Shown here piece after piece: positions 953-10,575 of a DNA stretch of 64,000 nucleotides. The position numbers and the translations under genes are program-made. Origin of the DNA: Escherichia coli (GTDB lineage: Bacteria; Pseudomonadota; Gammaproteobacteria; Enterobacterales; Enterobacteriaceae); assembly GCF_009931435.1 (NCBI RefSeq), contig NZ_CP043414.1; one strand, given 5' to 3'. Position 1 is the stretch's first letter; every line of letters starts with the position of its first letter. The notes below the pieces were generated by a model. The model saw only the letters and a list, made by a program, of their open reading frames with translations, searched no databases and was not told the DNA's origin.

Positions 953-1281
953 CTATTTGTTAGTGAATAAAAGGTTGCCTGTAAAATTACAAAAACCTTA
1001 CGCAGCGTCAAGCGGAATCGTGTCAATCATTGCGACAAATCAATCCTGTGCCTAAGCATTATGCGACTGACTCGCCTCACTCTTCCTTTGGGCTTGAGAC
1101 CACATGGGGTCGGCGCCCCGAATTTTAAAGGGCAATTACGATAAAAATGTGATTTTCATCACGATTTAGGTGCAGCCATTTCGTCGAGATCAAGTTTAGG
1201 ACAAAATTTTGCCAGTTGGTGTTAATGTTTTGTTAGAATCAGTCACGTAATGTGAGCACGATTAAAGTGAGATGTGAGCAA

Positions 1282-1695
1282 ATGGCTAATAAACCTTCGG
1301 CAGAAGAACTGAAAAAAAATTTGTCCGAGATGCAGTTCTACGTGACGCAGAATCATGGGACAGAGCCGCCATTTACGGGTCGTTTACTGCATAACAAGCG
1401 TGACGGCGTATATCACTGTTTGATCTGCGATGCCCCGCTGTTTCATTCCCAAACCAAGTATGATTCCGGCTGTGGCTGGCCCAGTTTCTACGAACCGGTG
1501 AGTGAAGAATCCATTCGTTATATCAAAGACTTGTCACATGGAATGCAGCGCATAGAAATTCGTTGCGGTAACTGTGATGCCCATCTGGGGCATGTCTTCC
1601 CCGACGGGCCACAGCCAACGGGTGAACGTTATTGTGTTAACTCAGCCTCTTTACGCTTTACCGATGGCGAAAACGGCGAAGAAATCAACGGTTGA
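1282..1695 (+). CDS. msrB: Peptide methionine sulfoxide reductase B
   Basis: ORF 1252-1695; internal Met gives 137 aa [12 protein letters not shown]..., CxxC zinc motifs. Confidence 0.93.
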
Positions 1696-1736
1696 AAAAA
1701 CGATTCAGCAACTTATTCCACAGGAGCGGAAAATTT

Positions 1737-2009
1737 ATGAATCTTGATGACATTATCAACAGCATGACGCCTGAGGTATACCAGCGTTTGTCGACAGCCG
1801 TTGAACTGGGTAAGTGGCCAGATGGCGTTGCGCTGACCGAGGAACAAAAAGAGAACTGCCTACAGCTGGTGATGCTGTGGCAAGCCCGCCATAATACCGA
1901 AGCACAGCATATGACAATTGACACACATGGTCAGATGGTTATGAAGAGCAAACAACAGTTAAAAGAAGATTTTGGTATCTCAGCAAAGCCTATTGCCATG
2001 TTTAAATGA
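1737..2009 (+). CDS. yeaC: DUF1315 family protein YeaC
   Basis: 90-aa product MNLDDIINSMTPEVYQRL...; GGAG-containing RBS upstream. Confidence 0.85.
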   Translation: MNLDDIINSMTPEVYQRLSTAVELGKWPDGVALTEEQKENCLQLVMLWQARHNTEAQHMTIDTHGQMVMKSKQQLKEDFGISAKPIAMFK

Positions 2010-2124
2010 TTGAATTATTCAGCTTTTTGAGTCTGTTATTAAGTGCGAACAAAAATACTTGTTTGACGTCTTGATTGTTCGATTTAGCGGTTGATAGGTT
2101 AAATGCAACACTGACGAGTATAAC

Positions 2125-2159
2125 CTGGCCTACGATGTCAATGAGGAAATGTAGGCCAG
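2125..2159. other. Perfect 9-bp inverted repeat (ctggcctac / gtaggccag) with 17-nt loop, between convergent yeaC and pncA
   Basis: Read directly from sequence; lies 19 bp past the pncA stop. Confidence 0.5.
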
Positions 2160-2177
2160 AGATGTATTCAACTAATA

Positions 2178-2819
2178 TTACTCCTGCGTCTCTTCCCAGT
2201 CTGCCAGCGTATATAGCGTTGCCCCAGCTGCTGACATCTCCATAAACGCGTGCGCACTGTCCTGTGGCTGGATATTCACGCCACGACAACCATCGGTAAT
2301 CACATTAACCTTATAACCTAACTGTAACGCGTCCAGCACGGTAAACTTCACGCAATAGTCAGTAGCCAGGCCCATAATGATCAATTCATCGATTTCATGA
2401 TCGCGTAACCAGTCATCGAGCGTGGTTTTCTGCCGACGGCCGTTATCAAAAAAGGCACTGTAACTGTCAACTAAAGGATTTTCGCCTTTATGGAACACCG
2501 CTGCGATCGCTTTTTGGTTCAGTAACGGATGTAATTGTGCGCCTTCACTGTTCTGCACACAGTGATCTGGCCAGAAGGTTTGTGGCAAACCGTCGAGTTG
2601 GCCTGGCGTATAAGGCTCTACACCGTGCTGACTGGCAAAACTGCCGTGATTCGCCGGGTGCCAGTCTTGACTGGCGATAACCGCTTCACCGCGCGACTGG
2701 CACCAGTCAATCAGGCGGTTAGCGACATCCACCGTACTGTCACCTTCCGGCACGGCGAGCGCGCCACCAGCACAGAAATCATTTTGTAAATCGACCAGTA
2801 ACAGGGCGCGAGGGGGCAT
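2178..2819 (-). CDS. pncA: Nicotinamidase / pyrazinamidase
   Basis: 213-aa product MPPRALLLVDLQNDFCAGG...; AGGAG RBS. Confidence 0.93.
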   Translation of the reverse strand: MPPRALLLVDLQNDFCAGGALAVPEGDSTVDVANRLIDWCQSRGEAVIASQDWHPANHGSFASQHGVEPYTPGQLDGLPQTFWPDHCVQNSEGAQLHPLLNQKAIAAVFHKGENPLVDSYSAFFDNGRRQKTTLDDWLRDHEIDELIIMGLATDYCVKFTVLDALQLGYKVNVITDGCRGVNIQPQDSAHAFMEMSAAGATLYTLADWEETQE

Positions 2820-2829
2820 TGCAGTCTCC

Positions 2830-3846
2830 TTAATCATCCGGCGTCAGTTCGCCGCGCAGGTTTTGGCTCATGGCCTTGCGAATGGTTTCAGTATCCAGTT
2901 CCTGGCTAAGCAGGTAATGCAGTTTGGTTAGCGTGGCTTCTACAGTCATATCTGCACCGCCAATAACGCCGGCATGGGCGAGGGCGTTACCAGTGGCATA
3001 ACCCCCCATGTTCACTTTGCCGGACATACATTGTGTCAGGTTGACTACCACAATTCCGCGATCGCTGGCTTCTTGTAATTCTTGCAGGAAGGCTTTGTTT
3101 TGTGGCGCATTACCCACGCCATATGAGCGCAGAATCAATGCCTTCACCGGTTGGCGCAGAAAATTGCGCACGACGTCAGCAGAAATCCCTGGATAAATCG
3201 TCACTACGCCAATCGGTTGTGGGGTGATTGGATGAACGATCAATTCCCCTTCACCGTGCGGGGCGGGTGGCGTATTCAAACGACGAATATGGATACCTGC
3301 TTCCAGTAACGGAGGAAGGTTTGGAGAGGCAAACGCATCAAAACCATCGGCATGGGCTTTGGTGGTACGGTTGCCACGATAAAGTCGATTATTAAAAAAG
3401 AGAGTTACTTCGTTGATAGGATAATTCGCCGCAACGTACAACGCATTCAGCAGATTAATTTGTCCGTCAGAGCGTAACTCAGCCAGCGGGATTTGTGACC
3501 CTGTCACAATGACCGGTTTACCGAGATTCTCGAGCATGAACGACAGCGCAGAGGCGGTATACGCCATCGTGTCGGTGCCGTGCAGAATGACAAAACCATC
3601 ATAGTCGTCATAATGCGCTTTAATATCTTCAGCAATATGCTGCCAGTCTTCTGGCGTCATATCTGAAGAGTCCATCAGCGGCGTATATTCATGAATGGTG
3701 AAATCTGGCATCTCCGGGCGATGGAATTCCGGCATCAGCGCCAGTTGGCGTTGTAGATGACCTGACACCGGAATATAACCCTGCTCGGAACGCTGCATCC
3801 CGATGGTCCCGCCCGTGTAGGCGACGTAAATTGATTTCTTTTGCAT
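2830..3846 (-). CDS. ansA: L-asparaginase I (cytoplasmic)
   Basis: 338-aa product MQKKSIYVAYTGGTIGMQ... Confidence 0.95.
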   Translation of the reverse strand: MQKKSIYVAYTGGTIGMQRSEQGYIPVSGHLQRQLALMPEFHRPEMPDFTIHEYTPLMDSSDMTPEDWQHIAEDIKAHYDDYDGFVILHGTDTMAYTASALSFMLENLGKPVIVTGSQIPLAELRSDGQINLLNALYVAANYPINEVTLFFNNRLYRGNRTTKAHADGFDAFASPNLPPLLEAGIHIRRLNTPPAPHGEGELIVHPITPQPIGVVTIYPGISADVVRNFLRQPVKALILRSYGVGNAPQNKAFLQELQEASDRGIVVVNLTQCMSGKVNMGGYATGNALAHAGVIGGADMTVEATLTKLHYLLSQELDTETIRKAMSQNLRGELTPDD

Positions 3847-3977
3847 GATATTGATATGAATGATATCGAAAGAGCAAAAGTATATACGTGAGGGGCAGCG
3901 AGCGCACCTGGATACTCTGTGGATATGAGAAAAGTCCGGCAGAACGGAGGGATTAGTGTCCCGCCGGAGAAAAGTGG

Positions 3978-4790
3978 TTAATCCTGCAACGCATAGGTTA
4001 CGGTGGTTACTACGCGTACCGTTTTATTAATCGCCGTAGGATCATCTTCATCACTGCCACTGGCGAAGATCTGGAACACGCCTTGTGAGGCATCGCTAAT
4101 TGACCCCACCTGGCTACCTGAGTCCGTTGCAAATTGTAATGCTGCGTTGCGTGCATCTTTGGTGGCGGCGGCAATCATCTCAGCGCGCAGTGCGCCAATA
4201 CCATTAAAGCGATAGGCGACTTTGCTCTCAGCGATAGCGCCCTCCGTAGCGACTTGCAGTTCGTTTAATTTCGCGACGACTTTTTCGACAGCAGCAACAT
4301 TATGGGTTTTTATCGTCACTGACCCGTCTGCGTTATAGCGTGGCATTGTGGGATCATCTTTCAGATAAAAGGAATCTGTTCGCTTGCTTGTCCATTGGCC
4401 CAGGGTTATCTCTTTCTCGTTAATCCCCTGAGCATTGAGTTCGGCAACAATTTTTTTCTGCGCGTCTTCCAGTTTCGGGAACAGTTCGCCGGGAATATTA
4501 CCCTTAAAGTTAATCGCAATTGTTAATTCTGCCGTATCTGCGCGAACTTCTTTTTCAGAAAGCCCACGCACATTTACATAACGGTTATTGGTTTTTAAAT
4601 GTTTAACACCATCGCCAACAAAATAACCACAGGCGCTAATCCCCAGTCCGAGGACGATAGCGGCAATTAAAGAGGGGGCCTTATTCACTGATGACTCCAT
4701 ATCAGATGCTAAATGAGCAAGGGAATGTAGTGGAGAGAGGGAGTGAAAGACAGTCCGATTCAGGAGTGTGGCCGACAGCATATCGGCCAC
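3978..4790 (-). CDS. SIMPL/DUF541-like putative lipoprotein (YggE-like); likely true start near 4701 (MESSVNK...)
   Basis: 270-aa ORF; hydrophobic leader with lipobox-like ISAC, then a fold pattern resembling the SIMPL family; no strong SD at either candidate start. Confidence 0.6.
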   Translation of the reverse strand: MADMLSATLLNRTVFHSLSPLHSLAHLASDMESSVNKAPSLIAAIVLGLGISACGYFVGDGVKHLKTNNRYVNVRGLSEKEVRADTAELTIAINFKGNIPGELFPKLEDAQKKIVAELNAQGINEKEITLGQWTSKRTDSFYLKDDPTMPRYNADGSVTIKTHNVAAVEKVVAKLNELQVATEGAIAESKVAYRFNGIGALRAEMIAAATKDARNAALQFATDSGSQVGSISDASQGVFQIFASGSDEDDPTAINKTVRVVTTVTYALQD

Positions 4791-4803
4791 ATTTTTGCAG
4801 GAT

Positions 4804-6660
4804 TTAACGCACGTTGGCGCAGGTCAGGCAAAACGCATAACGGTTTTGTGGGTCGTTAAACGCTGCCAGCTTGTCGCTTTCACTTTTAACGGTAGAGGCT
4901 ACCGAGGCCAGCGGTGCAGGTAACATGGCCTGGAACGCATCTGGCAACATTGCCCGGACAGAACCAGACATATTGTCCATCACTTTGTCGAAGAAGGTCG
5001 GTTCATCAACGTAGTATTCCAGATGCCACTGTTTCACTTTTGCCAGCTCTGCTGCTTTGGCAACCGCATCATCGAAATCTCCGAGACTATCGACCAGCCC
5101 GTTAGCTTTTGCATCCTGACCGGTCCAGACGTGGCCCTGGGCGATTTTATCAATCTGCTCCGGCGTCGAATGACGCGCATCAGCAACCAGCGTGATAAAG
5201 CGTTTATAGCCATTCTCAATGCTTAACTGCATCATCTGCTGCGCTTCCGGCGGCAGTGCCTTGGTGATAGAAACATCCGCCAGCGGTGAAGTTGAGACGC
5301 CATCGGTATGAACACCAATCGAATCCAAACTATTTTCTACGGTAGTGATCACGCCGAAGATACCGATAGAACCGGTCAGGGTGCTGGGGTTAGCCACAAT
5401 GTAATTAGCTGGCGTGGAAATCCAGTAACCACCAGATGCCGCCATGCCGCCCATCGATACAACCACAGGCTTACCCGCTGCCCTGGCGGCTGCCAGTTCA
5501 GCGCGAATCACTTCAGAGGCGGTAACGCTGCCGCCAGGGCTATTAACACGCAGAACAATCGCTTTCACTTTCGGGTCAAGGCGAGCGTCGCGGATTTGTG
5601 CCGCAGTGGTATCACCGCCAACATTCCCCTGAGTTTCCTCGCCATCCATAATTGCGCCATTCGCGAAGACGACACCGATGCTGTCACCGGTATCTGCCGG
5701 CGTTTTCAATGCGTAATCGTAATAACTGATGGCGCGATAATTTTTATCAGTCTTACTCCAGCCGAACTCTTTGGTCAGAGCTTTTTCGATTTCGGCACTT
5801 GATGCCAGTGCATCGACCAGCTTGTTTTCCAGCGCATATTTCGCGGTATCGCCACCTGTTTTGGTTAAACCCTCAAGCAACCCTTGCGCACCAGGGAATA
5901 CCTGCTGAGCAGGGATCTGCCGGTTAGCGGCAACAGTATTCAGATAGTTTTGCCACAGCTCACCGATCCAGCGGCTGTCAGCTTCGCGGGCTGCCGGTGA
6001 CATATCATCACGAATAAACGGTTCAACGGCAGATTTATACGTACCCACGCGGAACACATGGGTGGAGACTTTCAGCTTATCCAGTAACGATTTGTAGTAC
6101 AGACCGTTGGTAGCAAAACCGTGCAGATCCACCACGCCTTGTGGAGATAGCCAAATTTTGTTGGCGAAACTGGCGAGATAATATTGCCCCTGGCTGTAGT
6201 TCTCGCCTATGGCATAAACTGGCTTCCCGCTGTCACGAAACTCTTTCAGGGCTTTGCCGATGTACTGCATAGACGGCTGGTCGCCGCCTGCGAAGTTTTT
6301 CAGATCCATCACGATACCGGTGATATTGCGGTCGTCCTTCGCCTGGCGAATGGTGTTGACGATATCAAACAGTGAGTTTTCCTGCAGACGGTCGGAACTG
6401 GCACCAAGGAGCTGGCGGCTTAGCTTACTAAACCGCTGAGAACTGTCGGGTTTATCGACGATTACACCAGATATGTCCAGCAGCAGCGCGCCACGACTGG
6501 CCGTTTCTTTCGAATCACCACCTCTGACCTGCATCCAGATCCCCACACCAACCAGTACGAGAAAAATAAAGAACAGGTTAAGTACCATTTCACGGACGAA
6601 ATTCAGCAGACGCCACGTCCATTTAAAAAATCCGGCAATAAATCGCCAAAGGGTTCGCAT
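4804..6660 (-). CDS. sppA: Signal peptide peptidase A (protease IV)
   Basis: 618-aa product from internal Met [14 protein letters not shown]... Confidence 0.95.
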
Positions 6661-10492: not shown

Positions 10493-10517
10493 TGCTCTGA
10501 TGCAGTCAGTTTTCGTA

Positions 10518-10548
10518 GGCCAGATAAGGCGTTCACGCCGCATCTGGC
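10518..10548. repeat. REP (repetitive extragenic palindrome) element
   Basis: ggccagataaggcgttcacgccgcatctggc matches the classic REP core; between convergent topB and gdhA. Confidence 0.6.
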
Positions 10549-10575
10549 ATAAACGCCTGAAACGGCGCTAATGAC

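Follow-up and report, generated by a model that had tools for sequence, protein, structure and literature searches.

The 64-kb stretch of Escherichia coli DNA analysed here (the window) raises two questions: how its chromosome came to lack the eight ydj genes that separate yeaC from pncA in K-12, and what the inverted repeat in the remaining gap represents. The overall account that we consider very likely is that the gap is an empty allele of a variable locus, swapped by recombination, and that the hairpin formed by the inverted repeat is REP-derived and was not produced by the swap.

Gene layout and comparison with K-12

In agreement with the initial annotation, yeaC and pncA are convergent and lie 168 bp apart, yeaC ending at 2009 and the stop codon of pncA starting at 2178. 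The features of the region, in window coordinates, are:

Start of the window to about 940, minus strand: gapA
1282–1695, plus strand: msrB
1737–2009, plus strand: yeaC, encoding a DUF1315 protein (annotation of identical or near-identical genomes; Pfam DUF1315, E = 1.7e-27)
1862–2205: minimal extent of the putative recombination patch, with a maximal extent of 1834–2991 (from variable-site tables)
2010–2177: uninterrupted yeaC–pncA spacer, the 'type A' empty ydj allele (100% identical in RMDEC465, 97.8% in N96)
2045–2090: approximate site of the ydjL–ydjE segment, with the best alignment near 2049/2050; the position is alignment-dependent
2098–2133, minus strand: degenerate REP-like element, whose GTAG head is the hairpin arm farther from pncA
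2125–2159: 9-bp inverted repeat with a 17-nt loop (arms 2125–2133 and 2151–2159)
2178–2819, minus strand: pncA, encoding nicotinamidase/pyrazinamidase (annotation of identical or near-identical genomes)
2830–3846, minus strand: ansA
3978–4688, minus strand: gene for a SIMPL-domain (DUF541) protein, between ansA and sppA

Positions 1900–2300 match the complete RMDEC465 genome at 100% identity, and the yeaC–pncA junction is therefore not an assembly artefact. The MG1655 annotation places eight ydj genes between pncA and yeaC, in the order pncA (b1768), ydjE (b1769), ydjF, ydjG, ydjH, ydjI, ydjJ, ydjK, ydjL (b1776) and yeaC (b1777), just as the initial annotation had it. The possibility that K-12 has the same short spacer can be discarded, as the stop codons of its yeaC and pncA genes are 9,173 bp apart. 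The GC content of the ydj cluster is 43–47% over most of its length, compared with about 50–53% for the flanks, and the products of the eight MG1655 genes are without exception metabolic, transport or regulatory proteins. The cluster is an operon for an unusual sugar acid; its pathway includes YdjH as L-glycero-L-galacto-octuluronate kinase and YdjI as aldolase. Judged from its gene content, the window strain would be unable to use whatever substrate the ydj pathway handles.

Distribution of the empty state in E. coli

The junction was surveyed in 5,426 complete E. coli genomes with window positions 1900–2300 as query, a single uninterrupted match being scored as empty; otherwise the two halves of the query match separately. 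An uninterrupted junction is found in 1,088 genomes, ydjI is carried by 4,243, and about 95 have neither. Both states thus occur at one site within the species and have homologous flanks, which bears out the proposal that ydjE–ydjL is a presence/absence polymorphism. At least one of the roughly 95 genomes with neither state, strain 2017-01-4CC, retains just 51 nt of ydjI, and strain CUVET20-1667 carries an IS1 inside ydjI. As these two strains illustrate, the operon is also eroding in place.

The empty genomes contain two versions of the spacer. Besides the window, the type A version is present only in RMDEC465 (100% identity) and N96 (97.8%), i.e. in 2 of the 5,426 genomes. The other approximately 1,086 empty genomes have a type B spacer, which is about 90% identical to that of the window and 8 bp shorter; strains of serogroups O26, O103 and O111 are among the empty matches. 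Variation at this locus is already known, since the prevalence of ydjI has been tabulated per phylogroup: 96.6% in A, 29.9% in B1, 100% in B2, 50% in C, 100% in D and 100% in E (Yang et al. 2022, Table 2, PMC9602453). The polymorphism is therefore real but ordinary, its variable presence across phylogroups having been published.

A neighbouring gene is polymorphic as well. The SIMPL-domain gene at 3978–4688 is present in 943 of the 5,426 complete genomes, K-12 and the type B strain 06-00048 lack it and have about 166 bp at that position, and in strain E200086 an IS200/IS605 tnpA gene adjoins it.

Anatomy of the operon site

To locate the borders of the operon, empty spacers were aligned by MAFFT with the corresponding regions of K-12 and of strain 2020CK-00188, from which the operon had been removed computationally. 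With a segment of 9,041 bp (K-12) or 9,042 bp (2020CK-00188) removed, what is left can be aligned with the empty spacers from one end to the other. This segment lies between GGGGATA and AATCTTT, and spans from just past a hairpin downstream of yeaC to the stop codon of ydjE. Across the operon position of K-12, the empty allele of the genome E69 reads GGGGATAATCTTT. The operon-removed remainder is 65–66% identical to the spacer of the window and 74–75% identical to that of E69. The flanks of E69 are only about 92% identical to those of the window, and this species representative, although labelled E. coli, probably belongs to another Escherichia species.

The spacers form two deeply diverged classes. 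Class I, which is empty throughout, consists of the type A spacer of the window, the type B spacer and the spacer of representative L009. Class II consists of the empty spacer of E69 and the spacers of all operon-carrying E. coli examined. An earlier view of the 168-bp spacer as unique empty-site DNA, based on a megablast search that gave no K-12 counterpart, was rejected when Smith-Waterman and MAFFT alignments showed full-length homology to the flanks of the operon-carrying allele.

No target duplication is present at GGGGATA | AATCTTT, no more than 2 nt are common to the two borders (GGGGATA|G... and ...TTA|AATCTTT), and the gene content of the MG1655 ydj cluster includes no integrase, transposase or tRNA.

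Mosaic structure of the window

The genome most similar to the window over 20 kb is that of 2020CK-00188 (99.4%), which carries the ydj operon. The two are identical at 1200–1861, and between 2178 and 16182 they differ by two mismatches only, at 2205 and 10460. Between these tracts the window follows a different genome: it is identical to RMDEC465 at 1862–2991, and to the left and right of this tract the two genomes differ at many sites. Six linked SNPs in yeaC (1862–1926) change haplotype along with the spacer. The private left-flank alleles of the window (1611A, 1734T, 1796A, 1811T, 1814G and 1820A) are found in strain R32_14_1F joined to an operon-carrying allele, and the window must therefore be a mosaic. 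The patch-type 3′ end of yeaC, in turn, is joined to a different left flank in RMDEC465 and E200086. On the pattern of variable sites, the window is thus a chromosome of the 2020CK-00188 type with a patch of the RMDEC465 type that contains the empty junction.

Given this mosaic structure, homologous recombination within yeaC and pncA is the most likely way in which the operon was swapped out. In the proposed course of events, the yeaC–pncA gap of the window would be the operon-free allele of a long-lived variable locus, which in most E. coli holds a 9.04-kb ydjL-K-J-I-H-G-F-E segment and in about one fifth of the genomes an uninterrupted spacer. Ordinary homologous recombination in the flanking core genes would exchange both states between strains. 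A donor of the RMDEC465 type would have supplied a patch of 0.35–1.2 kb bearing the empty spacer, with the left crossover in yeaC (1834–1861) and the right crossover in pncA or ansA (2206–2991), and this patch would have replaced the operon-carrying allele that the near-clonal 2020CK-00188 still holds.

The direction of the swap rests on parsimony among three related genomes. Had the common ancestor been empty and the 9-kb operon been acquired by 2020CK-00188 through recombination, a single recombination event would likewise separate this strain from the window, as it does for either direction. However, the left flank of the window occurs together with the operon in both R32_14_1F and 2020CK-00188, such that an empty common ancestor requires two events with the same crossover interval and loss of the operon requires only one. 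Gain by 2020CK-00188 is accordingly unlikely, and it is probable that the operon was lost from the lineage of the window by allelic replacement.

A fresh illegitimate deletion of the cluster, involving no import of an existing empty allele, would also leave yeaC and pncA adjacent, and deletions of some kind are suggested by the approximately 95 genomes with neither junction nor ydjI, including 2017-01-4CC with its short ydjI remnant. For the window such an origin is highly improbable. Its spacer is not only identical to that of RMDEC465, but also homologous over its full length to the empty spacers of some 1,086 other E. coli and of two other Escherichia species representatives, whereas it differs by about 35% from what remains in 2020CK-00188 after removal of the operon; moreover, the six yeaC SNPs switch together with the spacer. 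A spacer composed solely of 2020CK-00188-type flanks, as expected after such a deletion, is not observed.

Within the lineage marked by the SIMPL gene the operon-carrying, type A and type B states are all found, so recombination at this locus is evidently frequent. Two further mosaics were observed: strain 2013C-4282 has the operon, yet carries a window-type yeaC stop region (AAATGAT; 2000–2012), and E200086 combines a window-type yeaC 3′ end with a type B spacer (1862–2010). It appears that crossovers within yeaC or shortly after its end have taken place repeatedly. Elsewhere in the window, about 100 mismatches to 2020CK-00188 cluster from 16183 to about 18572 and beyond, in the ynjC/ynjB region, which looks like another recombination tract separating the two genomes.

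The inverted repeat in both alleles

The inverted repeat described in the initial annotation is indeed perfect over 9 bp: the arms CTGGCCTAC (2125–2133) and GTAGGCCAG (2151–2159) are fully complementary, and a 17-nt loop separates them. A perfect 9-bp inverted repeat with a loop of 3–30 nt arises in about 2% of spacer shuffles (98 of 5,000), and the block-shuffled 64-kb window as a whole contains 3–7 of them; by these frequencies the repeat alone is just modestly non-random.

The suggestion that the hairpin marks the empty site did not hold, as the same arms are present in the ydjE–pncA spacer of operon-carrying genomes. In 2020CK-00188 this spacer contains CTGGCCTAC-N17-GTAGGCCAG, with a different loop sequence and a stem that reaches 12 bp. 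The K-12 arms, TTGGCCTAC and GTAGGCCAG, form an 11-bp version of the stem in which the outermost pair of the arms is a T-G wobble. Window positions 2103–2159 align with the 2020CK-00188 spacer at a score of 49, where shuffled sequences reach 14.6 ± 2.0. When the window is compared with the operon-carrying allele, none of the 18 arm positions is mismatched, as against 13 of the 39 surrounding aligned columns (Fisher p = 0.005). In every Escherichia allele examined, of either operon state, the hairpin lies 7–18 nt past the pncA stop codon. The hairpin thus belongs to the 3′ flank of pncA, is REP-derived, and was not produced by the operon swap.

These observations also bear on a reading of the hairpin as the scar or attachment site of a mobile ydj island. 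Its location in a gap that lacks the cluster and the scarcity of perfect 9-bp repeats among the shuffles would fit such a role. Yet the arms accompany the operon where it is present, the boundary of the cargo lies approximately 35–75 bp away from the hairpin, and the arms are not present at the yeaC-side junction, so there is no duplicated attachment site; with neither mobility genes or a tRNA in the cluster nor a target duplication at GGGGATA | AATCTTT, this reading is almost certainly wrong.

Relationship of the hairpin to REP and BIME elements

A REP has a GTAG head and, after it, an imperfect palindrome that is rich in GC and about 35 nt long; BIMEs are inverted REP pairs with a short linker. 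These elements are extragenic, usually located at 3′ ends or between convergent genes, are recognised or cleaved by RAYT (TnpA-REP) transposases, and are bound by gyrase, IHF or Pol I. The window contains a genuine REP at 10515–10548, GTAGGCCAGATAAGGCGTTCACGCCGCATCTGGC, and the hairpin arm read on the minus strand from 2133 to 2125 (GTAGGCCAG) is identical to its first 9 nt. The element also has an extragenic, 3′-end location, between pncA and the convergent yeaC or, in operon carriers, ydjE.

The 36 nt starting at the head were aligned globally to the REP at 10515–10548 and compared with 2000 shuffles in which the head was kept fixed and the body was shuffled. The observed score is reached by 0 of 2000 shuffles for K-12, by 2 for 2020CK-00188, by 1 for the type B spacer and by 1 for E69. 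For the window's own, more decayed copy 118 of 2000 shuffles reach the score, which is borderline. A strict local alignment to the genuine REP recovers the 13-nt head alone. In the REP-like element of 2020CK-00188 the outer stem GCCAGAT...ATCTGGC is intact, while in the window the body is decayed. Of the partner nearer to pncA, only 9–12 nt of a REP head are left. Enterobacter, Lelliottia and Pseudescherichia have complete inverted REP pairs after the stop codon of pncA (...CCCGGCCTAC - 8 to 16 nt - GTAGGCCGGG...), and a BIME in the ynjI–gdhA spacer of K-12 has the same GGCCTAC-linker-GTAGGCC centre. NC_000913.3 has no annotated REP between pncA and ydjE. Because of the alignment to the REP and the BIMEs found after pncA in other genera, the hairpin is, on sequence grounds, assigned as the head of a decaying REP together with a short inverted copy of that head.

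REPs also occur elsewhere. In the empty spacer of Salmonella enterica subsp. diarizonae a REP (GTAGGCCGGAGAGGGCGTAGCCGCCATCCGGC) adjoins yeaC rather than pncA. The topB–gdhA spacer of the window and its relatives (10493–10575) is 83 bp long and contains the single REP at 10515–10548, and in K-12 this interval holds ynjI, a DUF1266 gene of about 1 kb, and a full BIME. The topB–gdhA interval is thus a second presence/absence polymorphism adjoining a REP.

Possible roles of the hairpin

The hairpin region folds more stably than its shuffles, with z = -3.0 for the minus strand and z = -3.9 for the plus strand, and in the window it begins 18 nt past the pncA stop codon. Both properties would suit a canonical Rho-independent terminator of pncA or yeaC. 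Such a terminator, however, has a short loop and a U-tract, and the hairpin has a loop of 17 nt and a T-run on neither strand. A scan of 1650–2350 returned no terminator-like sites and a promoter scan gave nothing useful; a search of 1000–5000 against Rfam at E ≤ 1 yielded a spurious IRES match alone. The fold of 2005–2110, where a terminator of yeaC might lie, is not significant (z = -1.35). A terminator function is therefore quite improbable. REP stem-loops elsewhere slow 3′-to-5′ exonucleases, and the hairpin probably acts likewise at the 3′ ends of the pncA transcript and of the convergent transcript.

An inverted repeat that is due to chance, or is a decaying relic with no present function, would be in keeping with the strongly decayed REP body of the window allele, with the lack of an annotated REP at the hairpin in MG1655, and with the state of the arms themselves, in which no compensatory substitutions were observed and pairing at the outermost positions is broken in K-12 and E69. 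Against it stands the 7-bp core GGCCTAC / GTAGGCC, which stays unchanged between two spacer classes with an overall divergence of about 35% and in three Escherichia lineages at species level. On balance a lack of function appears somewhat unlikely, and a stem-loop that slows exonucleases is preferred. A more far-reaching proposal, that the pair of REP heads is selected as a regulatory stem-loop in the pncA 3′ UTR or as a protein-bound site, and maybe serves as a crossover or breakpoint for the exchange of cargo, is very doubtful. If it were true, the hairpin might also be a preferred crossover or breakpoint aiding the swaps of cargo in Enterobacterales, i.e. of the ydj operon, the GH18 chitinase gene and the HNH nuclease gene described below.

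The pncA–yeaC gap across Enterobacterales

A scan anchored on PncA, with one genome per species, gave 80 loci, which were analysed by tblastn, ORF calling and Pfam searches. The ydj operon, a GH18 chitinase gene and an HNH nuclease gene occur in the gap in different combinations:

Nothing in the gap, convergent neighbours: two other Escherichia representatives, Salmonella diarizonae, Kosakonia, Phytobacter, Shimwellia, Mixta and Rahnella
GH18 chitinase gene: Enterobacter, Lelliottia, Leclercia, Buttiauxella, Cedecea and Serratia
Chitinase gene and YajD-like HNH nuclease gene: Citrobacter werkmanii and Raoultella terrigena; the chitinase gene of Klebsiella pneumoniae is fragmented
HNH nuclease gene only: C. 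amalonaticus and others
ydjE–ydjL and chitinase gene: Citrobacter youngae, C. gillenii, Citrobacter sp. FP75, Klebsiella michiganensis, K. spallanzanii, Raoultella planticola and Yokenella
About 8 kb of other genes: Kluyvera
DDE transposase gene (Pfam DDE_Tnp_1) directly after pncA: E. albertii

The chitinase was assigned by its match to Pfam Glyco_hydro_18 (E = 4e-63; loci including L012, L021, L039, L061 and L079). Where Citrobacter and Klebsiella species carry the ydj operon, the chitinase gene is located beyond ydjL. The notion that the empty state is ancestral for the whole order was rejected as too simple, given the GH18 chitinase at this site from Serratia to Klebsiella. The ydj proteins of other genera are 82–96% identical to those of E. 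coli, similar to the values for the flanking core proteins. The history of the operon may possibly be one of ancient presence with repeated loss, or of transfer by flanking homology. E. albertii NBRC 107761 has a different sequence directly after pncA (2049–4007 of locus L007, not of the window), with a terminator-like hairpin and a gene matching DDE_Tnp_1 and DDE_Tnp_1_assoc, and no yeaC is found within the 1.9 kb of contig that remain after pncA.

Comparison with known systems

The findings all fall within known categories, namely an accessory operon of published variable presence, its exchange by homologous recombination and a degenerate REP/BIME. The locus shares with the published accessory variation of the ydj operon the same eight genes and the same chromosomal site, and absence is concentrated in part of phylogroup B1, in agreement with the published ydjI prevalence (PMC9602453). 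That study gives gene presence only, and not the junction; the window differs from the published cases in its rare version of the empty spacer and in the near-clonal relative of its lineage that has the operon.

Like an integrative genomic island, the ydj cluster is a discrete accessory block of low GC content that is present or absent at a fixed site. In contrast to such islands, which have an integrase or recombinase and repeats or an attachment site at both borders, the ydj locus is devoid of an integrase, a tRNA, direct repeats and a target duplication.

The hairpin has in common with REPs and BIMEs the GTAG head, the extragenic location between convergent genes and the head-to-head GGCCTAC-linker-GTAGGCC arrangement; the GC-rich imperfect palindrome after the head retains its outer stem in 2020CK-00188. 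It differs from them in that the pncA-side partner is reduced to the head and the other copy has a decayed body, the decay being greatest in the window. Stem-loops of the REP type are common between convergent genes.

The exchange itself closely parallels the replacement of flanking genes known from E. coli, with the same short imported tract and crossovers in conserved flanks; gene content is changed without mobile-element machinery, and nothing about the process is unusual. The patch of the window is small (0.35–1.2 kb), yet it removes 9 kb, and the locus may serve as a clean textbook case of a sub-kilobase patch of homologous recombination that removes a 9-kb operon.
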